Source: Deltaproteobacteria bacterium
Lineage (GTDB): Bacteria; Myxococcota_A; UBA9160; SMWR01
DNA length: 40,378 bases
Direction of reading: 5' to 3'
Assembly (NCBI GenBank): GCA_032128375.1
Contig: JAQBGU010000126.1
Location: 1 to 40,378, forward strand
Made by a program: the position numbers and the translations under genes. Of this stretch, positions 5,815 to 40,378 are shown piece after piece; position 1 is the first letter of the stretch, and each line of letters starts with the position of its first letter. Under the pieces are notes generated by a model. The model did not search any database. It was not told where the DNA came from and worked only from the letters and a program-made list of their open reading frames with translations.

Positions 5815-6915
5815 GTGATTTCATTTGGAATGTCGGAAGAGCAGGAGCTCATCCGCGACACGCTGCGCGAGTTCGCCAACGAGGCGATGCGCCCTATTGC
5901 ACGTGATTGCGACGAGACCGCACAAATCCCACAGGGTTTTCTGGACGGCATCTGGGAGCTCGGGCTGACCAACACGCAGATCGCCGAGCAGTATGGAGGC
6001 GGCGGCGAAGAACGCTCGCCGGTGACTAACGCGATCCTGCTCGAGGAGCTGGGCTTCGGTGACGTCGCGCTGGCGATTGCTGCCACGGCACCCAACGCGT
6101 TCGTCAATGCGATCGCCGATCACGGCACTGAGGAACAGAAGCAGGCGCTGCTACCGCTGTTTTGCGGCGACAGTTTTCACGTCGCCTCGCTGGCGGTACT
6201 CGAACACGGGCCGCTCGCAGATCCCGCTGCACCGCTGACCAAAGCCGAGCCGAAGGGTGACGACGGGTTCGTGCTGACTGGCAGAAAGAGCTGGGTGGTA
6301 CTCGGTGACCGCGCGAGTCACTTCCTGGTGTTTGCGCGCAACAACGGCGGTGTCGACGCGTTCATCGTTCCAAGTGACGCAGAGGGCCTGTCGATCAGCG
6401 AACCCGAGAAGAATGTCGGATTGCGCGGATTGACGACAGTCTCGATCGAACTGGAGCGGGTCGCTGTTGGCCCAGAGGCAAAACTCGGTGGCACACAGGG
6501 TTGTGATGTCCGCGCCATTCTCGATGCTTCGCGGGCGGCACATTCCGCGATTCTGGTCGGTGCGTGCCGGGGCATCCTCGAATTCTGCGTGCCCTACACC
6601 AAGGACCGCGTCGCGTTCGATGAGCCAATCGCAAAGAAGCAGTCCATCGCGTTCCGACTGGCCGAGATGCACATCGAAGTGGAAGCCATGCGTTGGATGA
6701 CATGGAAGACGGCTAGCCACGTCAGCCAGGGTCACGAAGATGCAACCAAGCAGGCGCATCTGACACGTCAGTATGTGTCCGAGAAAGCCATGTGGATCGC
6801 CGACAACGGCATCCAGGTCTTTGGCGGCCACGGCTTCATTCGCGAGTATCCCGTCGAGATGTGGTTCCGCAACGTGCGAACCCTGACGGTTCTCGAAGCG
6901 CTCGCGGGCGTCTGA
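5815..6915 (+). CDS. Acyl-CoA dehydrogenase (FadE24-like subunit)
   Basis: GTG start after AGGAG; YTKDRVAFDEPIAKKQSIAFRLA; QVFGGHGFIREYPVEMWFR; short C-terminus. Confidence 0.9.
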   Translation: MISFGMSEEQELIRDTLREFANEAMRPIARDCDETAQIPQGFLDGIWELGLTNTQIAEQYGGGGEERSPVTNAILLEELGFGDVALAIAATAPNAFVNAIADHGTEEQKQALLPLFCGDSFHVASLAVLEHGPLADPAAPLTKAEPKGDDGFVLTGRKSWVVLGDRASHFLVFARNNGGVDAFIVPSDAEGLSISEPEKNVGLRGLTTVSIELERVAVGPEAKLGGTQGCDVRAILDASRAAHSAILVGACRGILEFCVPYTKDRVAFDEPIAKKQSIAFRLAEMHIEVEAMRWMTWKTASHVSQGHEDATKQAHLTRQYVSEKAMWIADNGIQVFGGHGFIREYPVEMWFRNVRTLTVLEALAGV

Positions 6916-6973
6916 GCCCGGCCTCATCCCCTCGTACCCACGCGCCTGTCAGGGCGCGTCGAACGGAGATCCA

Positions 6974-8155
6974 ATGATCGATTTCACACTGACCGAAAAC
7001 GACAAGGCGCGCTTGGCGCACATCTACGCGCAAGGCGAATTCGTCCGCCAGTTCGCCCGCGAAGCAGACGAAAACGAAGCGGAGCTTCCGCCCGAGATCC
7101 TGCCGGGTGCAGCGGAGTTCCTGGCGTCGCTCTCGCATCCAGGTGCCCCCGGTCCGGAGGACACGCAGGGCGCCGCAATGATGACGCTGAACACGATCGC
7201 TGCGTTCTGGGGCGACTACTCGCTGCGGCCGAAGCAGCCTGGCGGCGGAGGGCTCGGCAACGCGGCTCTGGCCGCCGCGGGCAGTGACGACCAGAAGGCG
7301 AAATGGAGTCACCTGACGCTTTCGATGGCGATCACAGAACCCGGTTGCGGTTCGGACCCCTCGCGTGTCGAGACGTCTGCGGTTCTCGATGAAGAGACCG
7401 ACGAATGGGTGATCAACGGCGAAAAAATCTTCGTCACCACCGGAATCCGTGCCCAGGGCGTGGTGCTGTGGGCGACCATCGACAAGTCGGCGGGCCGCGC
7501 GGGTATCAAGAGCTTCCTCGTCGAAAAGAGCGCCCCGGGGTTCACCGTGCCCGGCAAGGAAAAGAAGCTCGGGATCCGCTCCGACGACACCGCCGTCTAC
7601 CTGTTCAACGATTGCCGTATTCCGCGCGGTAACCTGCTGGGTGGCGACGAGAGCATCCCGAAGGCTTCTTCGGGTGGCTTTCGGGGCGTCATGAAAACGT
7701 TCAACATGACGCGTCCGCTGACGGCCGGGATGGGGCTGGGTCTCGCCAAGGCCGCGCTCGATTTCGCCCGTGAAGAACTCGAGAAGGCCGGTGTCATTGT
7801 GCAGTACGGCGCCGGGACCGCCCAACAGTCTGCGGCGGCCGACCGCTTCACGCGGCTAGAAGCACTCTACGAAGCGGCTGAGTTGACTACGCTGCGCGCC
7901 ACGTGGCTCGCGGGTGACGCCAAGCCCAACAATATGGAGTCTTCGGTCTGCAAGGCGCACGCCGGCTCTGCGGTTCGGGCGATCACCCAGGGCTTGGTGG
8001 ACTTGCTCGGTCCGATGGGAATTTCGCGCGAGCATCTGATCGAGAAGTGGATGCGCGATTGCCGCATCACCGACATCTACGAGGGCACCGGAGAAATCCA
8101 GCGCTTGATCATCGCGCGGGGTCTGCTCGATTACACACGCGCAGATCTCAAATAA
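6974..8155 (+). CDS. Acyl-CoA dehydrogenase (FadE23-like subunit)
   Basis: MAITEPGCGSD, WVINGEKIFVT, KKLGIRSDDTA and EKWMRDCRITDIYEGTGEIQRLIIAR. Confidence 0.93.
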   Translation: MIDFTLTENDKARLAHIYAQGEFVRQFAREADENEAELPPEILPGAAEFLASLSHPGAPGPEDTQGAAMMTLNTIAAFWGDYSLRPKQPGGGGLGNAALAAAGSDDQKAKWSHLTLSMAITEPGCGSDPSRVETSAVLDEETDEWVINGEKIFVTTGIRAQGVVLWATIDKSAGRAGIKSFLVEKSAPGFTVPGKEKKLGIRSDDTAVYLFNDCRIPRGNLLGGDESIPKASSGGFRGVMKTFNMTRPLTAGMGLGLAKAALDFAREELEKAGVIVQYGAGTAQQSAAADRFTRLEALYEAAELTTLRATWLAGDAKPNNMESSVCKAHAGSAVRAITQGLVDLLGPMGISREHLIEKWMRDCRITDIYEGTGEIQRLIIARGLLDYTRADLK

Positions 8156-9520: not shown

Positions 9521-11317
9521 TCACGACGCGACAAGCGCTTCCCGCTTGCGACGTCGAGAATGCACGACGCGCCACACCCATGCGGAGAGCAGCACGAAAC
9601 CAGCCAACCCGAAGAAGGATACGGGTAGAATCCTGTCCGCGACATAGTTGAGCATCAGCTGGGTGCGCTGGTCGTAACCATCCCGAACGGGCAATACGTT
9701 GTTGTCTTCTGCGTAGCGTTGGTAATCGGCAAGCATCGCCGAGAAGCGTTTCGGATCGGCGTCTCTCAAGTCATTCGATTCTCCCGGATCGCTGACGATA
9801 TCGAAAAGGTGCCACTCGTCGTCGCCGACAGGCCCGCGATCCATGACGACCTTGTAGTCGCCCTTGAACAGCGCGGCGTTTCCGCCCAACTCGTAGCCGA
9901 TCGGCTCGTCGGCTGGGTGAACGCTTTCGGCCGATCCTGCCAGCAACCCGTTGAGACTCCTGCCGCTGATGACTTCTACCCGGCGTCCGGCGTATTCCCC
10001 GTTCGCCGGCGAGACACCCGCGATTTCGAGGATGGTCGGCGCAATGTCGGTCACGTAGGCGAGCGCATTCGTGATGACACCCTTCGCCGCGACCGTCGGA
10101 CCCGCGATGATCAGTGGTACGCGCATACCCCCTTCACGCGCGAAGAACTTGTAGTACGCCAGCGGCGCGGCCGCAGCGCTCGCGAAACTCGGACCGATAT
10201 TCACGAAACTGCCGCGCGTACCCAGTGTCTCGTAGTCGGTCGAGTAGCCGTTTCTCCCCAGCCAAAACCGGAACAGGCCACCGCCGGGGCCAAAGGTCGG
10301 ATCGCTACCTTCTGAGCCGTTGTCCGATGCGAACACGAAAACGGTGTTCTCGTACTCGCCGATCTTCTCGAGGTGGTCGATCAAACGGCCGATGTGGTGA
10401 TCCATCGCAGCGACCATGCCCGCGTAGACGGCCATGCGTTTGGACGCGTAACGCTTTTCCTCATCGGAGAGCGCGTCCCAATTCCCGTTCGTCTCCACCG
10501 GCGCCAACTGGGTTGTGGGGGGCACGATTCCGAGCGCCTTGGCGCGCACGAGGCGCTGCTCGCGCAGGCGGGTCCAACCCGAGTCATACACGCCCATATA
10601 CCTGTCGGTGTACTCTTGCGGAGCCTGGACGGGAATGTGTACCGCCTGAAATGGGATGTACGAAAAAAACGGCCGGTGGTCGGCGCGATTCGATTCGATG
10701 AACTCGATGGTTTTATCGATATAGAATTTGGAAGAATAGAAATCGTCGGGAAGCGCATCGAGTTCGCGACCGTCGGCGAACCAGTGGGCCCTGTCGTAGA
10801 TCGGCAGGTACGTCTTCATCTCCCAGTTGTCGGCACCGGTATCCGCCATCGCAACGGTCCGCTCGAAGCCGCGTTGGCTCGGCAACAGATCCGGCGCCAT
10901 TCCCAGGTGCCACTTGCCGGTCATGTAGGTGTGATATCCGGCATCTGCCAGCAATGCCGCGATCGTCACGACGTCGTGACTGAGCGTGCCGGCGTAGTCG
11001 GGCTGCTCCGACTGATACCGTGGAATCGATTCGGGGATATTGGGGACGCCGTTTCGGTGGCTGTCTACACCTGTCAGCAACATCGCGCGGGTCGGCGCAC
11101 AGCTGGCCGCGGTGTGGTAGTTGGAAAACTGCATTCCCTCAGCCGCAAAGCGGCTGATGTGAGGAGTCGGTATCTCGCTCCCGTACGGCGCGGTATCGCT
11201 GAAGCCGAGGTCGTCGGCCAGAATCAACACGACGTTGGGTGGCGCAGCGGTGGCGCTGCCAGCAGGCGCGAATAGCAGCGCCATCAGGAGTGGACTGGCC
11301 CACCTCTCAGCGCGCAT
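9521..11317 (-). CDS. Arylsulfatase (Cys-type) with signal peptide and C-terminal membrane anchor
   Basis: PNVVLILADDLGFSD, CAPTRAMLLTG, GKWHLG and FASDNG. Start placed at MRAERW, overlapping the upstream stop. Confidence 0.92.
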   Translation of the reverse strand: MRAERWASPLLMALLFAPAGSATAAPPNVVLILADDLGFSDTAPYGSEIPTPHISRFAAEGMQFSNYHTAASCAPTRAMLLTGVDSHRNGVPNIPESIPRYQSEQPDYAGTLSHDVVTIAALLADAGYHTYMTGKWHLGMAPDLLPSQRGFERTVAMADTGADNWEMKTYLPIYDRAHWFADGRELDALPDDFYSSKFYIDKTIEFIESNRADHRPFFSYIPFQAVHIPVQAPQEYTDRYMGVYDSGWTRLREQRLVRAKALGIVPPTTQLAPVETNGNWDALSDEEKRYASKRMAVYAGMVAAMDHHIGRLIDHLEKIGEYENTVFVFASDNGSEGSDPTFGPGGGLFRFWLGRNGYSTDYETLGTRGSFVNIGPSFASAAAAPLAYYKFFAREGGMRVPLIIAGPTVAAKGVITNALAYVTDIAPTILEIAGVSPANGEYAGRRVEVISGRSLNGLLAGSAESVHPADEPIGYELGGNAALFKGDYKVVMDRGPVGDDEWHLFDIVSDPGESNDLRDADPKRFSAMLADYQRYAEDNNVLPVRDGYDQRTQLMLNYVADRILPVSFFGLAGFVLLSAWVWRVVHSRRRKREALVAS

Positions 11318-29131: not shown

Positions 29132-30100
29132 CTAGGAAGCCTGTCGGCCCGCTGCGCTCTCGCGCCGGATCTGCTCCCAACGAAACGGTGACTTGATCTG
29201 CGCCCACCAGGTCATCGGGAAGGCGGACAGGCCGGGGATTCCGATCTCTGCGGGCGGCTCGCGGTCTTTCGGCAGGAAGCGCGTTCCGAACAGCGTGTCC
29301 CAGACGATGATGGTCTGGCCGTAGTTGTGGTTGGATTCATCCATGGTCTTCGAATGATGCCATCGGTGCAGCTCTGCCATGCTGAAGAAGTGGTTGAGCA
29401 CCCCGAGCCGCAGTTGCAAGTTCGCGTGCTGGAAGATCCCATGCACGGCCGTCACCAACGTGAACAGCGCCAACACTTCGACGCTACACCCCAGCAGGAC
29501 GAGAAGGCCGTAGGATGGGATGAAGATGATCATGATATCGAGTGGGTGGAAGCGACCGGCGTTCAGCCAATACAGTCGCGGCGCGCTGTGGTGCGTGGCG
29601 TGAACGCGCCAAAGCGGTTCCCACTCGTGTTCGATGCGGTGAACCGTGTAGCCGGGCAGCTCGCCGATGACCAGCGCGAGCGCCAACTGGGCCAGTAGTG
29701 GCGCTTCGCTCGGCCAGAGTCCCATGCCGAATTCGCTCGACAACCAGCCACCGATCGCGACGCCGCCGGCCGCTACGAAGGGCGTCACGAGCCCAACCAG
29801 GATCCCGATGTTGATGCTGTGGGTTGCGTCCACGCGAACGTCGTCGTGCGGCCGGTTCCAGCTGCGATGGTATGGGTAGACGTGTTCGAGGATGGCCACG
29901 ACGGCGAACGCGCTTAGCTGCGGTATCAAAACCGCCTCGGGTGCTGGTACTCCGGTCGCCATCCAGTAGATGCACCACGCGACGCTGGCGCCCATCACGA
30001 CAGGGAAGACAGACCATTGAAAAGCGGCCGGAGCAACACGGCTGTCAGTCACCCGTTCAGTCACCCGTTCAATCACCCGTTCAATCACCCGTTCAGTCAA
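29132..30100 (-). CDS. Sterol desaturase/fatty acid hydroxylase family
   Basis: His boxes HRIEH, HATHH, HANL and HRWHH. The TTG at 30100 follows GGAGG; start uncertain. Confidence 0.9.
   Translation of the reverse strand: MTERVIERVIERVTERVTDSRVAPAAFQWSVFPVVMGASVAWCIYWMATGVPAPEAVLIPQLSAFAVVAILEHVYPYHRSWNRPHDDVRVDATHSINIGILVGLVTPFVAAGGVAIGGWLSSEFGMGLWPSEAPLLAQLALALVIGELPGYTVHRIEHEWEPLWRVHATHHSAPRLYWLNAGRFHPLDIMIIFIPSYGLLVLLGCSVEVLALFTLVTAVHGIFQHANLQLRLGVLNHFFSMAELHRWHHSKTMDESNHNYGQTIIVWDTLFGTRFLPKDREPPAEIGIPGLSAFPMTWWAQIKSPFRWEQIRRESAAGRQAS
30049..30096. repeat. Four 12-bp tandem units TCACCCGTTCAR
   Basis: TCACCCGTTCAG, TCACCCGTTCAA, TCACCCGTTCAA, TCACCCGTTCAG; reads TERVIERVIERVTERV in the desaturase frame. 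Confidence 0.92.
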
Positions 30101-30390
30101 CCATGCCTCCAGCGTGCGGCGGCAATCGCGATCAGACTTTCTCCAAGAACTCGAAGAACTGCAACGCATACACGGCATCGAACCCGGTAAGCGTACAATC
30201 TGTCAGACGAACAATCATCCCGGTCGAAGCACTGATTCGAATCGCGCGTGCGAGCGAGCCCACCGAGACGTGACCCAACCCGATACACCTCCACCTGATT
30301 CATCGATTGAAAGCCAAGCCGTGGCGCGCGACAATCATCCAGACGGGGGGCATCAGGTCGCTCGGGTTCCCGCGCGCTGGAGGATCGTTT

Positions 30391-31137
30391 GTGAATGGTA
30401 CGGCTCTTGGATTTGTCGCATTGCTCGGGATCGTCTGTTCCGGCGTGCTTTGGTTTCGTGCGATGGGCGCTGTCAGCCTGCCGGCCAATCGGTCCGGTTT
30501 CGTCGCCGCGTGGCTCGGCTGTGGCGCCCTCGGCATCGCGGCCATCGCCCAGGGGCCGGGCTGGGTGGGCGGCGTTCCCGCGGTTTTATCGATCATTGGC
30601 GCGAGTTTTTTCCTTTTCACGGTGACGATCAGCCGCCAACAAGTGAAGGCCGACGCAATCCGCGTGGGTGCGACGTTGCCCGATTTCAGTGCTGCTGACG
30701 AAAACGGTGAAGCGTTCGACTCATCCAGCCTCGCGGGTCACCCAGTCCTGATCAAGTTCTTTCGCGGACACTGGTGACCCTACTGCGTCGCCGAGTTACG
30801 GCGATGGGAAGAGCTTCGGCCCGAGTTCGATGCACGCGGTGTCCAGATCGTCACGGTCTGCACCGACACGCCCAACCAGATCAAGGCCGGCCACAAGAAG
30901 CACAACCTCGGCGCACGCATGCTCTCGGATCGGGAACTCGAAGTGACGGATCGCTTCGGCTTGCGCAATCAGGGTTTCCATTCCGGGATTCCCGGCCAAG
31001 CCAAGGCATTGCCGGTACCCACTTCGATCTTGGCAGATGCCGACGGGAAGGTGGTGTGGATGGATCAATCCGAGAACTACCAGCGCCGGTCGGACCCCGA
31101 CTACGTGCTGGGCGCGCTACGAACTCACCTCGCCTGA
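30391..31137 (+). CDS. Membrane-anchored AhpC/TSA (peroxiredoxin-like) selenoprotein, UGA=Sec at 30775-30777
   Basis: GGAGGA then GTG; three TM segments; VGATLPDFSAADENG...PVLIKFFRGHW*PYCVAELRRW. The same frame stays open through IVTVCTD...MLSD...PTSILADADGKVVW to the stop at 31137 (248 aa). Confidence 0.88.
30786..30806 (+). promoter_or_regulatory. Candidate bacterial SECIS element
   Basis: Stem CGTCGCCG/CGGCGATG (8 bp, one G-U) with loop AGTTA starting 16 nt after the UGA. Confidence 0.7.
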
Positions 31138-33389: not shown

Positions 33390-34271
33390 TCATTCTGCAG
33401 GGGGCTGGCTTTCGATAGGACTCGGACGCTTCAGTCCCGGGATCGGTCGGCCCACTTCCAATGCCACCATGGTGAAAAACGAGTCGTCGATCGGAGGATT
33501 CATCGCGATGTCCTCGAATCGTGCCTCAGTCCGCGTCCCGCGCAGAGTATTTGTAACGACGATTCGAGAGGGAATGAGGTGCGCATCCAGCGAGATCAGG
33601 TCGGAACGGGGTGTCTCCAAGATCCGAAACGGTTCGGGCGAATCCGTTCGTTTGAAAAATTCCACCCTTAGCAACACGTCGTCGGTTGCGGCAATCAGAA
33701 AATCGACGTGGTCGTAGCCGGCCCCATCGACCGGTGACGCCTCAACGACGAACAGCGCCTCGTTGGCATCGACAACGTTGCGGGTCGATCGAATCTCATA
33801 GTCTTGTGCGCGCCGACGCTCGAAGTCCTCGAACCAAAGGTCCGAACCCATAAACGAGTCGGTGCGCTGGAAGCTCGACACTCGCCGAACGCGCTGCATC
33901 TCGGGAAGAAAAACGAAGTGATCGTCGGCTCGGTCGAGATGCTCCAGCATGAGAATCGTCGTGCCGCGCATCCACATCGGTTCGAGGAATCGTCCGTAGA
34001 CGTTTTGACGACCGCCGATTCGCTTCCGGGCGATCTCGACCCTTCGAATCAGCTCGTCTCCGCGCCGGTCGTAGATGTGAAGTGTGACGTTCATCAGAAG
34101 GTCGCAGTCGTACAGATTGTCGAAAGCACGGTCCAGAATCGTTTCGCCATGCATCGAACTCACCAGCCCGGACCCATCGTCGGCGGCCCCGAGCAGGGCA
34201 ATCGATAGGGCGACAATCAACAGGGCGTAACGGCTTTCCAACGGTTTCCCCCGATTCGCTCCGCTTCTCAC
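33390..34271 (-). CDS. LolA-like 'outer membrane lipoprotein-sorting' family protein
   Basis: Signal-like N-terminus; RFLEPMWMRGTTIL...DDHFVFLPEMQRVRRVS...SFMGSDLWFEDF...NPPIDDSFFT; GTGA overlap with the upstream stop. Confidence 0.85.
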   Translation of the reverse strand: MRSGANRGKPLESRYALLIVALSIALLGAADDGSGLVSSMHGETILDRAFDNLYDCDLLMNVTLHIYDRRGDELIRRVEIARKRIGGRQNVYGRFLEPMWMRGTTILMLEHLDRADDHFVFLPEMQRVRRVSSFQRTDSFMGSDLWFEDFERRRAQDYEIRSTRNVVDANEALFVVEASPVDGAGYDHVDFLIAATDDVLLRVEFFKRTDSPEPFRILETPRSDLISLDAHLIPSRIVVTNTLRGTRTEARFEDIAMNPPIDDSFFTMVALEVGRPIPGLKRPSPIESQPPAE

Positions 34272-37200
34272 TGCGTGAGCGGCACATGCAATACGAAACT
34301 GCTGCCCTCGCCAGGCGTCGATGTTACACAGATCTTCCAGCCCATACCCTCGGCGATCTCACGACTGATCGACAGCCCAATCCCCCGGCCTCCCGAACGG
34401 GACCGGGTCGTGTAGAACAGGTCGAATACTCGAGTGGTTTCGTCCAGAGTCATCCCGACTCCACTATCTCGAACCTCGAATGACAGCTCGCCACTCAACT
34501 CGGTCGCGTACACCCAGACGCTATCCTCTACGTCGCTCGCAGCGAGGGCATTCTCGACCAGGTTGGTGAGGATTCGAGCGAGCTTGTCCGAATGCTGCAT
34601 TCGAGGAAGTTCGGGCGCGGCACTGACGAGAACGCGGCCACCACCGGGATCGACTGCATCCACCACTCGGCCGATCACTTCGGTGACGGGGATCCCAATC
34701 CCAGGAGCGGGGTGGTGAGCCAGTTCGTCGACCATTCCGTACACGATTTCCAGTACGTGCTGCGACACAGCTTCGATCTTCGCGGCTTCTGCGCGCATCT
34801 GCTCGGGTTTCGAACTGGTGGCGATGATGCGTTCCGCGCGCCGCTCTATGACGCGCAGAGGGGTACCCAGATCGTGGGCGATACCGGTCACGAGCCGACC
34901 GAGAGCCGACCGTTCGGCAGCCGACGCTTGCTGTTCGGCCGCACGGGCGTTTCTGACAGCAGATGCGGTGTGTACGGCGGCCTTGCATGCAAACTCGATT
35001 TCTTCGCTCGAGAAGGCACGACCGGAATCCGGCGACCCAATCAGGATGATCCCCATGGGCTCGTCTCCGTCGTCGATCGAGATGAGAAGTTCGACTTCGG
35101 CGTTGCGGAGAGCAACGGCATCTGGTGAATCCGGCGCATCCCCTCGTGCGAGATGCAGGAACTTCCGATCGCCCAATAGCTCGATAGCGAATGATGCATA
35201 CTGGAGTCGAAACGCGGGACTCGCGAGCCCTGCGTAGGCGGGACAGCAATCGCCGTCACGAATGAGAAAGACCGCAACTCCAGTCGACTCGAGTCCCGCT
35301 TCGAGCGTTTGACCCACGAGCGTTGCGCTGACCACCTCTGATGAGAGATCGGCCTTCCTGACCTCCTGCACTCTCAATAGTTCCCGCCGTTTTCTCGCGC
35401 CGGGCGCGAGCGTATCGGTCACAACCGGTGAAAGTCTTCGATGGATCGACTCGGAGATCGCGAAACCCAAGGCTCCCGACAGTACCCAGAGCGAGACACC
35501 GCCAATCCCAACCATCGCATGGAAAGTCGTGATTGCTGTCGCAGTGATCGCTCCCGCAACACCGACACGTACAACCCCATCGAGAATCGACCTGGCGTTC
35601 GCGGCCAGGTCGAATAGCTCGTACCGCGTGGTCGCGTATCCGAACGGCACTGCGAACAGGCCAAGGCCTGAGAGAAGCGGAACCATTGAACCGCCAGCTA
35701 GAGACTCCCCCCAGCCGAAGTGGATCGCGCCAAAGATCAGCGGAACTCCCGCCGACCCGACGAGCAAGAGACGGGCTCGTGTACGCTCCAGTGCCGACCT
35801 CGTCTCATTTGCGGCCCTCACGGCATTGATCCACAACACGAGCGCGCCACACCACGTGAATGCGAGCTGAAATTGAACGACGAGGGTCCACAGGCTCGGC
35901 TCTCCTCTCAAGCCACGAACACCCGCGAATGCGAGAAGTACTGCGAATCCATAGGGGACCAAAACCACACCGGGCGCTTCGCGCGTAACGCTGCCTCGTC
36001 TCGGAAACGTCAAAGCCAGATGCCCCAACGTCGCTGGAATCAAAGGGGCCGTGGCAACACCAATCCATGCCAGAAAGGGGCTCTCGAAGTGGCATAGGAT
36101 GGCAATGAGCTGCACACCAGTGACGGAAAAGAGGAGTAACAGCGGCGTAGAGGCTCGTGCGGTTGCGCTCGAGTACACGCGAATTCCGAACGCCAATACG
36201 ACGGAGACGATGCACCCCGCCAGCAGGATTCCCAGCAGGCGCGAGCCGGGCGCCGCCGCAGAGGTAGGTACATCGATCGACCTCCGAACACCATCTCGCT
36301 CGACACTGAGTCGCACTCTGCCTTGGCTGCTCTCGATGGCTTGCGAGTACGGCCGATCACGCGAGAACGAAACAAGCCTTCCATCCGCCTCCACTCCCAG
36401 CACCTGATCGAGGGGTCGGAGCGGACAATCGTGGGATGACCCGACGATGAGCGGGATCACTCCGTTTGGCATGACTCGACAGGCCAGGCGTGTTTCGGGG
36501 TCATTTGGGGAGAGCCAAGGAGCTGCAGCCAGAACGAATGCAGTCAGGAGGGGAAGGACGAGGGCGACCAGCTGGACTCGTCGCCGCGACTCCGATGTAT
36601 GCTCCTCAACCCCCGGTGGCCCATCCGGAGCCTTGCCTTGCGACGATCCGGTCACGACGAAAATGATGGCGGGCAGCACCCAGAGATCCGCAACCAATGC
36701 GCCAAAGATCGCCACTCCTGCCAAGAACCCGAAACTCGCGATGCTCTGCCAGGAAGAGAACAGAAGCATGAAGAAGCCGAGAGTCAGGGCAACCGAGGTG
36801 GTGACGATTGCGCGACCGACGTGACGAACCGCGCCTTCGATTGCTTCCGCGCCTTCGGAGCCATCCCTTCTTCGTCGGTGAAATTCGGCGATCAGATGGA
36901 TGGCGTCGTCGACGGCGAGGCCCAACACGATTGCTGCAACCATCGCGGTTCCGACGTCGAGGTTGATGCCAGCGAAACCCATCACGCCCAGCGTCACCAC
37001 GACCGGAAGCAGTGTCGGGAACATCCCGACCAGGGCCCATCCGAACGACGCACCCACACTGAGACCAATCCAACGAATGAACAGGACAAGGATTCCGAGG
37101 ATCACCACAGCAGCGGTCGCGAAACTCGATAGCTGGGTTTGCTGGATCTCGGTCACCATGTCGCGATAAACGGCATAAGGGCCAGTAAGTGTGACCGCGA

Positions 37201-38938
37201 CAGACGAACGGAGACCGCTGGCCAGAATGCCATCCACTGCGCTCAGTATCCTGGCGCGCTCGCTCTTTGGCCGTTTTTCCGCCTCGACCGACACCCTCAG
37301 ACGGCTCAGTGTGGGGCTGATCCATTTTTCGAGGGCACCGGGGTCGCGTAGTGAGAGGAGCGTGAGGAGGTTGCTATTGAGACCGTCGGTATCGGGCAGC
37401 CGTTCGAATTCCGGCTTGTCGTCGTGCAACAAGCGATTGGTCCGTTTCAGCATGCTCACAACGCTGTGAACGGGACCCAGCCCGTCGATTGCGCTGAGCG
37501 ACATCTCGAGTTGCTCGACCTCGTGCAACAAGCCTGCGTCGTTCGCGAGTGTGCCGACCGGCAAGGCGAGTTCGATCTCGAGAGTATCAGGCTTCTGCAG
37601 GTGGGATTCGACGAAGCGGTATCCCTTGACTATCTCGCTCTGTTCTCCGAGTAGCTTGTATTCGTCAACATCGACATCCAAACGGAAGACACCCAACACA
37701 CAGACCAATCCCAGAGCAATCGCCCCAATCAAGATTGGCACCGCCCGTCGGCGGGTGGCGGCGACCAAGGACGCCAATCCCATTTCCCAGCGTTCCGAAC
37801 TCTGGGCGGCTCGTGGACGCTCGGCAGGCAACAGGATCATCAGGATGGGTAGGACGGTAAAACTCAGGAGCAGGGCTACGACCATTCCGAATGCCGCAAC
37901 CGTGCCGAACCGTACGAAGCTCTCGAGACTTGACGTAGTAAACGAGATGAATCCAACAGCCGTCGTCAGCGAAGTAACGAGACACGCCGGTCCCACTCTC
38001 CGGGCTGCGAGCAAGAAGGCTTCCGGTCGGACGGAGACCCCCCTGACTCGATGTTTTGCGTACTCGGCCAAGATGTGGACCGAGTCGCTGAGCGCAATGA
38101 CCAGAATCAGCGGGGGAAGTGTCTCGGTAAGAGCATTGGTCGGCCACCCAAGAGCCGCCTGAAAGCCCATGGTCGAGCCTGTCGATAGCCCGACGGTTGC
38201 GAGAGAGGCGGCCACCATTTGCCAGGATCGGAACAGCACGAACACAACGACGGCGATCAGCGCGATCATCAATGGAATGAGCCGCTGAGAGTCGGCTGCT
38301 AGTTCCGCATCGGTCTGCGCGAGCTGCGCGGGTTGACCAACGATGTAGAATTGGAATCCCAACGCGCGAAACGGCTCCAGTGCGCCTTCGAGCGCCGACA
38401 GTACGCCCGTCGCCGTATCACTGTGTGACGAAGACAATTCGAGGACGATCGCGCCCACAAGGCCGTCCGGGGAAACAAGAAGGCCCCGCCACAGGGGATC
38501 GGCGACAGCGCGGGCCGCCAGAGCCGCGATGTCGGACGCCGGTTGTTTACCATCGTAGAGCGTGCGTCCACCGAAGGAATCCCCTTCGGACACCCATAAT
38601 TGTGTCGTCGCGGGACTCTCGATCCGGATGATGTCGGAACGACTGCTGAGATCGCGCACCACCGAGTGCGCCATTGCTAGAGACGAGGAATCGAAGACCG
38701 TCTCACATGCAGCGCTCTGTTCACAGCTCCACGTGGCAATGATTGGCAGGCCACCACCGAAATCATCGATGAACTGATCCAAACGAATGACCGTGGGGTG
38801 CTCATTGCCGAGATACGCCCGATAACCCGTTTCGGCTCGCAGTGTCGGAATTCGCGAAGCAAGAAGAGCCACTCCCAACACGAGCACCAGCAGGACGACC
38901 ATGGGGTGAGCGAGTGCGATTCGGGTGAGTCGATCCAA
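34268..38938 (-). CDS. MMPL/RND exporter fused to a PDZ-like, multi-TM, GAF-like histidine kinase
   Basis: Single open frame. Two RND repeats with IALSDSVH and GLAVDDAIH; linker; LRPLDQVLGV...VRLSVERDG; TM bundle ending YATTRYELFD; GAF-like MGIILIG...FSSEEIEF; AHDLGTPL, NLVENA, DSGVGM, FYTT and GRGIGL. TTG start 8 nt after GGAG. Confidence 0.9.
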   Translation of the reverse strand: MDRLTRIALAHPMVVLLVLVLGVALLASRIPTLRAETGYRAYLGNEHPTVIRLDQFIDDFGGGLPIIATWSCEQSAACETVFDSSSLAMAHSVVRDLSSRSDIIRIESPATTQLWVSEGDSFGGRTLYDGKQPASDIAALAARAVADPLWRGLLVSPDGLVGAIVLELSSSHSDTATGVLSALEGALEPFRALGFQFYIVGQPAQLAQTDAELAADSQRLIPLMIALIAVVVFVLFRSWQMVAASLATVGLSTGSTMGFQAALGWPTNALTETLPPLILVIALSDSVHILAEYAKHRVRGVSVRPEAFLLAARRVGPACLVTSLTTAVGFISFTTSSLESFVRFGTVAAFGMVVALLLSFTVLPILMILLPAERPRAAQSSERWEMGLASLVAATRRRAVPILIGAIALGLVCVLGVFRLDVDVDEYKLLGEQSEIVKGYRFVESHLQKPDTLEIELALPVGTLANDAGLLHEVEQLEMSLSAIDGLGPVHSVVSMLKRTNRLLHDDKPEFERLPDTDGLNSNLLTLLSLRDPGALEKWISPTLSRLRVSVEAEKRPKSERARILSAVDGILASGLRSSVAVTLTGPYAVYRDMVTEIQQTQLSSFATAAVVILGILVLFIRWIGLSVGASFGWALVGMFPTLLPVVVTLGVMGFAGINLDVGTAMVAAIVLGLAVDDAIHLIAEFHRRRRDGSEGAEAIEGAVRHVGRAIVTTSVALTLGFFMLLFSSWQSIASFGFLAGVAIFGALVADLWVLPAIIFVVTGSSQGKAPDGPPGVEEHTSESRRRVQLVALVLPLLTAFVLAAAPWLSPNDPETRLACRVMPNGVIPLIVGSSHDCPLRPLDQVLGVEADGRLVSFSRDRPYSQAIESSQGRVRLSVERDGVRRSIDVPTSAAAPGSRLLGILLAGCIVSVVLAFGIRVYSSATARASTPLLLLFSVTGVQLIAILCHFESPFLAWIGVATAPLIPATLGHLALTFPRRGSVTREAPGVVLVPYGFAVLLAFAGVRGLRGEPSLWTLVVQFQLAFTWCGALVLWINAVRAANETRSALERTRARLLLVGSAGVPLIFGAIHFGWGESLAGGSMVPLLSGLGLFAVPFGYATTRYELFDLAANARSILDGVVRVGVAGAITATAITTFHAMVGIGGVSLWVLSGALGFAISESIHRRLSPVVTDTLAPGARKRRELLRVQEVRKADLSSEVVSATLVGQTLEAGLESTGVAVFLIRDGDCCPAYAGLASPAFRLQYASFAIELLGDRKFLHLARGDAPDSPDAVALRNAEVELLISIDDGDEPMGIILIGSPDSGRAFSSEEIEFACKAAVHTASAVRNARAAEQQASAAERSALGRLVTGIAHDLGTPLRVIERRAERIIATSSKPEQMRAEAAKIEAVSQHVLEIVYGMVDELAHHPAPGIGIPVTEVIGRVVDAVDPGGGRVLVSAAPELPRMQHSDKLARILTNLVENALAASDVEDSVWVYATELSGELSFEVRDSGVGMTLDETTRVFDLFYTTRSRSGGRGIGLSISREIAEGMGWKICVTSTPGEGSSFVLHVPLTQ

Positions 38939-38943
38939 CCGGT

Positions 38944-40209
38944 CTACTCCGACCGCTCGCCTTCGCGCCGAACGGGAACGAGCTTGTGACGACGAAAGCG
39001 ATACTTCGCTGCGTTTCGAGTAATTCCCAGATGATCTGCAACGCCGGTGTATGTTCCGTGCTTCTCCCAAAGTTCCAAGAGCTGTTCGCGTTCACCTTTC
39101 TCTCTGCGGCGCGAAATGCGCTCGAGTGGTGTCTCGATTTTAGATAGAACCGATTCCGCGCAGTCGGCGGTGATTTCACCACTGGGTGTGTATACGAGCA
39201 TCGCTTCCACGACTCGCTCCATCTCATCGAGATTCTGCTCCCAAGAGTGATTCCTGAGTTTCTCGAGAGCGGGTTCTCCGATAGAGACATCGCGCCGACC
39301 GAGCTTCGAGCCGTACCGCTCGATCATGGACTCGATGATTGCGGGAATGTCCTCTTCACGTTCCGATATGGGTGGCAGGCTGACTTCGAACTGGGCCAGG
39401 GTTTCAAAGAGTGCGGAATCGAAGTCGCCACTCTCGACCAATTGCTGCAAATCGCGTTCGGTGGACGCTACGACTCGGTAACCAGCATCGCCGAGCTGGA
39501 TCGATCTCGAGAGCCGATCACGCCAGCGGGATTGAAGAGTCCCGGATAACTGATCGACATCGGCGAGGAACACCAGGCCCGTTTCGGGGTCTCGATCGGC
39601 GCCCGGCCGCAATCGACAATCGTTCACGTGGAAGTCGGAATCGCCCTGATGGCCAAAGCGATGAAGATATCGTGCCACCTGTTCGTGGCCGGTGCCGACC
39701 GCGCCGCGAATCAGCACCGGGCTCCTGATTTCCGCAAGAGAATTCAGCTGACGAAGTAGGGTCAATGTCGCCGAACTGTGTCCCGCGAGAGCCTCTGGAA
39801 TTCGGTCCACAAGTCCTGACAAAAGTTCCTTCGCCCTGGAGACGAGCCCCGCTACGCCTTCGTCATTGAACGGAAAGAAGTCCGTGGCTCCACTCTTGCC
39901 GGCTGCAACGGCAATCGAGAGCGACCCATACGCCGAAAGAAGAAGAACAGGGCATGCCGCATTGACCGAACCCGAAGACCTGATCCGCTTCAGGAGCGCA
40001 AGACCATCGACCCGCGGCATTCGAAGATCGGTGATCACCAGATCGATCGGCTGACGCTGAAACTGCATCCATCCCGACTCACCATCAACAGCGGTCACGG
40101 TCCGAATCCCGGCGTCTTCGAGTTCCGCGCAAACCAGATCGCGAGAAAACTCACGATCATCGACCAATAGAACTGTGCTCTGGGCGGCGCGCTCGGGCCT
40201 GGAGTACAT
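38944..40209 (-). CDS. NtrC-like response regulator (REC, degenerate AAA+, Fis-type HTH)
   Basis: VLLVDD, ITDLRMPRVDG and LLSAYG; PVLIRGAVGTGHE; RVVASTERDL; VADHLGITRNAAKYRF. Confidence 0.88.
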   Translation of the reverse strand: MYSRPERAAQSTVLLVDDREFSRDLVCAELEDAGIRTVTAVDGESGWMQFQRQPIDLVITDLRMPRVDGLALLKRIRSSGSVNAACPVLLLSAYGSLSIAVAAGKSGATDFFPFNDEGVAGLVSRAKELLSGLVDRIPEALAGHSSATLTLLRQLNSLAEIRSPVLIRGAVGTGHEQVARYLHRFGHQGDSDFHVNDCRLRPGADRDPETGLVFLADVDQLSGTLQSRWRDRLSRSIQLGDAGYRVVASTERDLQQLVESGDFDSALFETLAQFEVSLPPISEREEDIPAIIESMIERYGSKLGRRDVSIGEPALEKLRNHSWEQNLDEMERVVEAMLVYTPSGEITADCAESVLSKIETPLERISRRREKGEREQLLELWEKHGTYTGVADHLGITRNAAKYRFRRHKLVPVRREGERSE

Positions 40210-40228
40210 GAGTGTCCCGTAGTTGCGT

Positions 40229-40268
40229 CTCCTGAGAAAACGCGTCCTCGGGCGCGATTTCTCAGGAG
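40229..40268. promoter_or_regulatory. Long inverted repeat upstream of the regulator-transporter-kinase operon
   Basis: CTCCTGAGAAA (40229-40239) / TTTCTCAGGAG (40258-40268), with inner CGCG/CGCG also pairing; 19 bp upstream of the ATG at 40209. Confidence 0.6.
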
Positions 40269-40378
40269 CAATGTCTCCGCCCGAAGGGCGGTGCAACGCT
40301 AACAACGATACCCTTTGGCCACAGAACAAGTACACGAAAATCGAAGCGCAGCGGTTCGAAACGCCAAGCATTGGAGCG

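Follow-up and report, generated by a model that had tools for sequence, protein, structure and literature searches.

In a 40,378-nucleotide contig of a Deltaproteobacteria bacterium (GenBank assembly GCA_032128375.1, contig JAQBGU010000126.1), referred to here as the window, a gene at 30391-31137 had been proposed from its letters alone to encode a hidden membrane-anchored selenoprotein with a UxxC motif (U, selenocysteine, Sec). On the comparative data gathered here it is close to certain that the gene does encode a selenoprotein. The product is very probably a 248-residue inner-membrane protein composed of three transmembrane helices and a thioredoxin-fold domain, predicted to face the cytoplasm, with the active site U129-P-Y-C132, its Sec codon being decoded through a selenocysteine insertion sequence (SECIS). 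The elements of the gene are as follows.

30391-31137, plus strand: the whole selenoprotein gene, 248 codons followed by the stop codon TGA (31135-31137)
30307-30335, plus strand: promoter-like site TTGAAA-17-GACAAT, a consensus match only
30379-30384, plus strand: Shine-Dalgarno-like GGAGGA, 6 nt before GTG 30391, read from the sequence
30397-30627, plus strand: three-helix membrane anchor (residues 3-26, 35-53 and 57-79), predicted by AlphaFold2
30664-31059, plus strand: thioredoxin-fold catalytic domain, from a Pfam AhpC-TSA match
30775-30777, plus strand: in-frame TGA, assigned to selenocysteine U129 at position 1 of UxxC by Cys/TGA comparison
30784-30786, plus strand: Cys132, the presumed resolving Cys of UxxC, invariant in the family alignment and matching the peroxidatic Cys of 2cx3 and 5enu
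30787-30805, plus strand: putative SECIS mini-hairpin GUCGCCG / AGUUA / CGGCGAU, from folding and near-invariance in 77 sequences
31012-31026, plus strand: LPVPT loop with the presumed cis-Pro P210, aligned with PLPTT of ResA

The locus appears as two open reading frames (ORFs), 30307-30777 and 30919-31137. As the original prediction had stated, these share one frame and form a continuous protein when the TGA is read as U, with the sequence around U129 being ...LIKFFRGHW-U-PYCVAELRRWEEL.... The TGA does stand at the first Cys of the motif, since a search for proteins of similar length gave 120 listed matches of which 105 contain FFRGHWCPYC, whilst 6 of the 120 end exactly at ...FFRGHW. A search for shorter proteins returned 834 matches with E ≤ 0.001. 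Of these, 120 were listed, and 104 of those listed are the two halves of the gene as split by gene callers: 13 N-terminal fragments ending ...GHW, one being the window's own, and 91 C-terminal fragments whose first residue is the Leu of ELRRWEE. The remaining 16 are shorter C-terminal pieces. The 91 C-terminal fragments are explained by the Leu codon of the hairpin loop, which reads TTG in half of the relatives, where it has been miscalled as a start. Publicly, the C-terminal fragments carry the names 'peroxiredoxin family protein' or 'redoxin domain-containing protein'.

Genomes of species representatives were scanned for the locus, and 80 of the 109 loci found were kept (numbered L001 to L080); locus counts below refer to these 80. 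The query was a C-terminal alignment, which replaced an earlier mixed alignment that lacked a conserved stretch. As this query was built from Sec-type C-terminal fragments, the sample leans towards the Sec clade. The homologous codon is TGA in 76 loci, amounting to 77 genes owing to two copies in L002. TGT or TGC was found in three loci (L054, L068, L073) and TAA in one (L035), a decayed copy; neither TAA nor TAG ever occupies this codon in intact copies. The TGA is therefore not peculiar to the window, and Sec/Cys pairs exist at this position. The decayed copy, L035:7753-8502 from a Halioglobus metagenome-assembled genome (MAG), has several stops or frame breaks upstream, and its hairpin and downstream frame are still recognisable.

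Downstream of the TGA, all but one of the 78 Sec-type genes keep an open frame of 116-135 codons, the exception being L060 with 77 codons, and this frame ends at a conserved ...ALRxHL tail. Mean pairwise differences at codon positions 1, 2 and 3 of this frame are 0.30, 0.25 and 0.55, respectively. Between the window and its nearest relative, L001, which comes from a Myxococcota MAG of marine origin and is 77% identical over 247 columns, nonsynonymous and synonymous differences in the downstream frame are pN 0.073 and pS 0.451. By these measures the downstream frame is evolving as coding sequence under purifying selection.

These observations bear on two other ways of reading the TGA. Were it a true stop, the locus would be either a pseudogene or a gene for a small membrane protein beside a gene for a C-terminal fragment. 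Gene callers annotate the locus in just this way, the relative L035 is decayed, and gamma proteobacterium NOR5-3, one of the organisms with a Sec-type copy, is reported to be without SelA and SelB. However, 77 genes from both Myxococcota and Pseudomonadota share the TGA at this position, the intact copies always have TGA, and the downstream frame, interrupted early in only one of the 78 Sec-type genes, is under purifying selection. Moreover, the window has no in-frame start at the position matching that of the C-terminal fragments, where its Leu codon is TTA, and the first ATG lies 47 codons past the TGA. A stop would also split the thioredoxin fold at the active site. Termination at this codon is thus very improbable. 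A changed code, with TGA as a sense codon for Trp or Gly, or a sequencing error for TGC or TGT, has no specific support and we give it almost no credence. TGA is the ordinary stop of 11 of the 23 Pfam-supported ORFs of the window and of the selenoprotein gene itself, the homologous residue is Cys rather than Trp or Gly, and the same TGA is present in 77 genes on 76 other loci from many separate assemblies.

Selenocysteine decoding is further suggested by a hairpin 3′ of the TGA. Its 7-bp stem (30787-30793 with 30799-30805) encloses the loop AGUUA (30794-30798), and C30786-G30806 forms an eighth pair in the window. The original prediction had recognised the hairpin and its loop and had placed its start 16 nt downstream; this distance in fact reaches the loop, the first stem base lying 9 nt from the UGA. 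A G-U in the apical loop is required for recognition by SelB, as in the E. coli and Moorella SelB-SECIS complexes, and the expected loop G is present here. The TTA codon retained in the loop (30796-30798) is indeed rare, as had been remarked, making up 10 of 1011 Leu codons (1.0%) in the Pfam-supported ORFs. Across 77 distinct Sec-type sequences there is next to no variation at positions 13-31, counted from the U of UGA, and this includes synonymous sites within the hairpin (C15 in 77/77, C18 in 76/77, G27 in 77/77 and A30 in 77/77). Codon usage after the UGA is as follows.

Codon +4, Val: GTC in 73/73
Codon +5, Ala: GCC in 76/77
Codon +6, Glu: GAG in 76/77
Codon +7, Leu: TTA or TTG (TTR) in 76/77
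Codon +8, Arg: CGG in 75/76
Codon +9, Arg: CGA in 77/77

Elsewhere in the gene the codons of the same amino acids have an entropy of 1.4-2.2 bits, and the synonymous sites flanking the hairpin (6, 9, 12, 36, 39, 42, 45 and 48) are freely variable. The three Cys-type loci use CTG for the hairpin Leu and CGC for the second Arg. The RNAalifold consensus consists of a 6-bp core and a 5-nt loop. Like known bacterial SECIS elements, the hairpin lies within the coding sequence just 3′ of the UGA, and its small apical loop, which contains G-U, is reached 16 nt after the UGA. It differs from them in its short, perfect stem of 7-8 bp with no bulged U, and in a sequence that is essentially invariant throughout the clade.

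A number of results weigh against the selenoprotein interpretation, or against parts of it, and are considered together here. Folding energy separates the hairpin poorly from chance: a 38-nt fold has -14.3 kcal/mol (z -2.48) and is equalled by 3 of 200 shuffles, but the z score is -1.28 for 44 nt and +0.40 for 66 nt, so that in these two longer windows energy alone does not distinguish the site from shuffled sequence. As a single sequence the hairpin thus looks only modestly unusual, and the case for it is built on the comparative data. There is no covariation in the stem, conservation alone being the support, as an invariant stem leaves no compensatory changes to observe. Furthermore, Cys-type L073 and L068 (9980-10023) also fold a hairpin at this place, with a loop of GCUG type and not AGUUR. 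The stem is accordingly in part a by-product of the VAELRR peptide written in GC-rich codons, and the SECIS may derive from a pre-existing hairpin imposed by coding. No Rfam family reached its gathering score across the window, and a permissive Rfam scan of 30700-30900 returned only a chance proV RNA match on the other strand (E 0.6). The function assigned below is based on homology only, with no conserved neighbour pointing to a substrate or reductant.

A further point on this side concerns the decoding machinery, which the original prediction had expected elsewhere in the genome. Neither selA, selB, selD nor tRNA-Sec is in the 40-kb window: a tRNA scan of the window found no tRNA gene, a domain scan of 35 large ORFs gave no sel-type match, and tblastn with the SelA and SelB of L040 against the window and the 80 loci recovered L040 itself only. 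The Sec capacity of the source organism is thus presumed. Likewise, NOR5-3 is scored SelD+, SelA-, SelB- and YbbB+ in Table S1 of Peng et al. 2016 (PMC5029168), and its scaffold DS999407.1 (L080) carries the gene with TGA at 9980, an intact hairpin and an open downstream frame. Either the table or the draft genome is incomplete, or this copy is not decoded there. Among the 120 matches listed in a search with the L040 SelA no NOR5-3 record was named, though many Halioglobus SelA records were, and a literature search found no paper joining 'NOR5-3' and 'selenocysteine'. The terminal tree branch of the NOR5-3 copy is long (0.64).

The orthologue in the Halioglobus MAG L040 is immediately followed by selA (TIGR00474, 3.9e-177) and then by selB (TIGR00475, 8.3e-110). 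Flanks of the other kept loci contain no selA/selB or tRNA-SeC. The L040 genes belong to a compact selenium cluster (L040:1944-7523) comprising the Sec gene, selA, selB, tRNA-SeC (6088-6181) and a second selenoprotein gene, AhpD_rel_CFYUT, which is itself split at a TGA into ORFs 6261-7064 and 7083-7523. A hairpin 3′ of that UGA has the loop GUU, which fits a shared G-U loop requirement.

A FastTree tree was computed from 174 rows (76 Sec and 98 Cys), with no root inferred. Sec rows with truncated halves (L046, L060) were left out, as were Cys proteins that are not 235-300 residues long or whose motif lies in the first 100 residues. The tree contains a Sec-dominated group of 81 rows (support 88), made up of the 76 Sec rows and five Cys rows (P0002, P0003, P0004, P0032 and P0098), and a group of 90 rows with Cys throughout (support 98). 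On the tree, the Sec/Cys label changes 5 times, with at least 4 changes forced by well-supported branches; shuffled labels required a mean of 56.7 changes, and none of 500 shuffles gave as few as observed. The simplest reading of this unrooted tree would be a single gain of Sec followed by few reversions to Cys, a reading suggested also by the identical SECIS throughout the Sec clade. By record title, 34 loci belong to Myxococcota and 32 to Pseudomonadota, and both are interleaved in the tree.

Two Sec-type copies are present in some genomes of Myxococcota. The two paralogues of L002, with TGA at 1059 and 2178, are ~1.1 kb apart on one contig, and two complete chromosomes have distant Sec-type paralogues (L031 and L043 on OZ252299.1, L038 and L070 on OZ245002.1). 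Sec-type copies were also found under the titles Nitrosopumilus (L049), Klebsiella pneumoniae (L060), Enterobacteriaceae (L079) and Spirochaetaceae/Spirochaetales (L012, L013, L030, L044 and L067). These copies nest among those of Myxococcota and Gammaproteobacteria in the tree, which suggests either mis-binned or mislabelled contigs, or gene transfer.

The N-terminal three-helix membrane domain of the original prediction was recovered in an AlphaFold2 model built on an alignment of 93 family sequences (pLDDT 94.6, pTM 0.90), where the three helices are joined to the thioredoxin-fold domain. Residues W21, P31, G48, A51 and G55 of the helix region are conserved. Over the 93 members, the mean number of Lys and Arg residues is 0.11 in the N-terminus, 3.16 in loop 1, 0.16 in loop 2 and 1.47 in the 15 residues after helix 3. 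On the positive-inside rule, such a pattern would put the N-terminus outside and leave the catalytic domain facing the cytoplasm, an orientation we infer from a count that is a rule of thumb.

The catalytic domain matches Pfam AhpC-TSA (6e-26) and Redoxin (9.5e-23). Against the PDB, the best Foldseek matches are BcpB 5epf, Bcp4 3hjp and ResA 2h1b; BCP/PrxQ peroxiredoxins and ResA match about equally, with 5epf on top (TM-score 0.85 on the target). A family profile searched against the PDB found ResA best, at 3.5e-15 (4nmu, 3c71). Alignment to the peroxiredoxins 2cx3 and 5enu shows that the canonical set of Pro-x3-Thr/Ser-x2-Cys and a distal Arg is not preserved. Sec U129 falls on the Thr/Ser of TxxC and C132 on the peroxidatic Cys, whilst the peroxiredoxin Pro is replaced by Arg125 and the catalytic Arg by Pro210. 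The WCxxC motif and cis-Pro loop of the ResA/TlpA/CcmG type are, in contrast, both present on the thioredoxin fold, and P208, P210 and T211 are nearly invariant in the family alignment. As the peroxiredoxin Pro, Thr and Arg are lacking and the ResA/TlpA-type features are present, the protein is more likely a thioredoxin/ResA-type UxxC oxidoreductase, that is a thiol/selenol-disulfide reductase, than a peroxiredoxin. The original prediction had offered 'peroxidase or reductase'; the reductase half fits better, and the peroxidase half fits poorly with Arg and cis-Pro at the peroxiredoxin Pro and Arg positions.

Compared with ResA, TlpA and CcmG, the protein has the same fold and agrees with WCxxC residue for residue, and the P-x-P-T-T of the family aligns with PLPTT of ResA. 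It differs in having Sec for the first Cys, in being anchored by three membrane helices where those proteins have one, and in a catalytic domain predicted to be cytoplasmic. A conserved C-terminal W-x-D-Q-x-x-x-Y-x-x-R-S-x-P is a feature of the selenoprotein family and is absent from ResA. With the BCP/PrxQ peroxiredoxins (5epf, 3hjp, 2cx3) it shares the Pfam family, the fold and the second Cys at the peroxidatic position; the differences are Arg for Pro at -7, Sec for Thr/Ser at -3 and cis-Pro for the catalytic Arg.

During translation, the UGA at 30775-30777 would be read as Sec and not as a stop, with the 19-nt hairpin 9 nt downstream acting as a bacterial SECIS that recruits SelB-GTP-Sec-tRNA(Sec) to the ribosome. 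In the mature protein a selenolate would then take the place of the attacking Cys of thioredoxin/ResA and attack an oxidised substrate, which would be a disulfide or perhaps a sulfenic acid or hydroperoxide. Cys132 would resolve the intermediate as a selenenylsulfide, to be re-reduced by a cellular thiol system. Selenium incorporation, SelB binding, topology, substrate and reductant are all inferences in this scheme.

Two alternatives keep the selenoprotein and change its role or its side of the membrane. It might be a GPx-like membrane peroxidase, with Sec129 oxidised by a hydroperoxide, perhaps that of a lipid in the inner leaflet, and Cys132 resolving the selenenic acid. Membership of the AhpC/TSA Pfam family, the BCP/PrxQ structures 5epf, 3hjp and 3drn among the best structural matches, and a Sec at the first CxxC-equivalent position, as in the UxxT of GPx-like proteins in published selenoprotein tables, all agree with such an activity. 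The membrane tether and neighbours of the SDR, P450, enoyl-CoA hydratase and acyl-CoA dehydrogenase type would be compatible with a membrane or lipid substrate. However, every non-Cys peroxiredoxin position is replaced (Pro by Arg, Thr by Sec, Arg by cis-Pro), the best sequence matches are ResA thiol-disulfide oxidoreductases, and these neighbours are large generic families, none of them conserved (maximum 12 of 80 loci). We therefore consider a peroxidase unlikely. A periplasmic catalytic domain, supplying reductant in that oxidising compartment for cytochrome or copper-protein maturation in the manner of ResA/TlpA/CcmG, seems rather unlikely too. The closest characterised sequence relatives, ResA, TlpA and CcmG, are all extracytoplasmic and share the WCxxC motif and cis-Pro loop, and a few relatives (e.g. 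P0110) have Lys/Arg-rich N-terminal extensions that, if real, would favour N-in, C-out. Yet the Lys and Arg counts assign loop 1 and the segment after helix 3 together to the positive side (3.16 and 1.47, compared with 0.11 and 0.16), no CcdA/DsbD or cytochrome c maturation gene is among the recurring neighbours, and the curated cut-offs are missed by far, with 52.8 against 170 bits for ResA (NF002854) and 26.5 against 230 bits for TlpA (NF047696). A cytoplasm-facing reductase remains our preferred reading. More speculatively, and with little confidence on our part, the anchor could hold this cytoplasmic selenol site at the inner leaflet for the repair of oxidised membrane components such as lipid hydroperoxides or lipid-linked thiols. 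The confident arrangement of helices and domain (pTM 0.90), the conserved helix residues and the interleaved phyla are compatible with such a role.

The selenoprotein nature of the family is already in print, since 2005-2008, and the gene is an ordinary further member and not a new system. Prx-like selenoproteins are mentioned in the Sargasso Sea paper of 2005 (PMC1088965). Table 2 of the GOS study of 2008 (Zhang and Gladyshev, PMC2398784) has 'Prx-like 1' (pfam00578, UxxC, 225 selenoproteins), and supplementary file 3 of that study gives, under '#Prx-like 1', the read ...KFFRGHWUPYCVAELRRWEELRGEFD...WMDQSENYQQRSDP... as well as another that spans the hydrophobic N-terminal part. A motif search of this file found 'FFRGHWU' in 2 places, 'HWUPYCVAEL' in 2 and 'GHWUPYC' in 27. 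The gene belongs to 'Prx-like 1' by its PF00578 domain, its UxxC (U-P-Y-C) and its likeness to the listed reads; the extended motif and the C-terminal tail are shared and nothing essential is different. 'Prx-like 1' is a wide grouping in which soluble forms such as ...FYRGHWUPYCRRQL... are placed as well. A 2026 review (PMC13188914) has an entry for a 'Prx-like thiol:disulfide oxidoreductase, PF00578, UxxC/UxxU' as a high-confidence predicted family.

No NCBIfam model reaches its cut-off on the selenoprotein, and none covers the subfamily. The models PrxU (NF040737; 26 of 270 bits), WAxxUGC_long (NF041054; 34.5 of 300) and SelL_rel_redox (NF040769; 28.6 of 120) match weakly and only in the active-site region. 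The word 'transmembrane' is absent from the main texts of the GOS 2008 paper and the 2026 review, and a limited literature search on membrane-anchored Prx-like UxxC selenoproteins matched only an Asgard archaea paper. Hence the selenoprotein family of the original prediction is a known one, and the three-helix anchor is the part that may be undescribed in print.

GTG 30391 is the more likely start codon, in preference to TTG 30307, judging from its sequence context. It follows GGAGGA at a distance of 6 nt, N-terminal fragments of 128 residues in relatives start at the matching residue, and TTG 30307 sits within the -35 hexamer of the promoter-like site. One such site was found where 0.2 were expected in shuffles.

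No gene neighbour is conserved among the 80 loci. Within 5 kb the most frequent clusters are SDR (12), an unnamed ORF (11), P450 (10), enoyl-CoA hydratase (9) and GST (6). The original prediction had linked the gene to a divergent O2-using desaturase; this FA_hydroxylase-family neighbour (29132-30178, minus strand) recurs only in L001, 1 of the 80 loci, and the association is not conserved. The convergent PCMT-like neighbour recurs in 0 of 80.

A screen of the window for joined frames (two frames of at least 60 codons across one TGA) gave 79 candidates, as expected in GC-rich DNA, and none except that at 30775 has a redox-type context. Other features of the window include a short tandem repeat with a 12-nt unit (30017-30110) in the N-terminal coding part of the FA_hydroxylase ORF, whose translation is ERVIERVIERVTERVT when read from the minus strand and SPVQSPVQSPVQSPVQ from the plus strand. 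On the minus strand, a 1600-residue ORF (34268-39070) combines MMPL / sterol-sensing (Patched-like) domains with a C-terminal histidine-kinase ATPase domain, an unusual transporter-sensor fusion, and is adjoined by a sigma-54-type response regulator (38944-40371, minus strand). A DDE transposase ORF (PF01609; 256-1986, minus strand) lies near the left end of the window.

The original prediction was thus correct in its main points. The remaining interest of the gene lies in its membrane tether, ResA-like active site, invariant SECIS marker and the case of NOR5-3. Membrane attachment is unusual among catalogued bacterial selenoproteins, and the Sec-dominated clade beside an all-Cys clade offers a clean natural Sec/Cys pair. 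If the membrane-repair role were true, the protein would be a thioredoxin-fold counterpart, in bacteria, of the membrane-active GPx4, and gene transfer would have spread it among Halieaceae and marine Myxococcota. The near-invariant 19-nt SECIS (GUCGCCGAGUURCGGCGAU), at a fixed offset from the UGA, provides a simple and specific annotation marker that flags Sec-using genomes. Since gene callers split the subfamily and no NCBIfam model covers it, its part in how marine Myxococcota and Halieaceae use selenium is probably undercounted.

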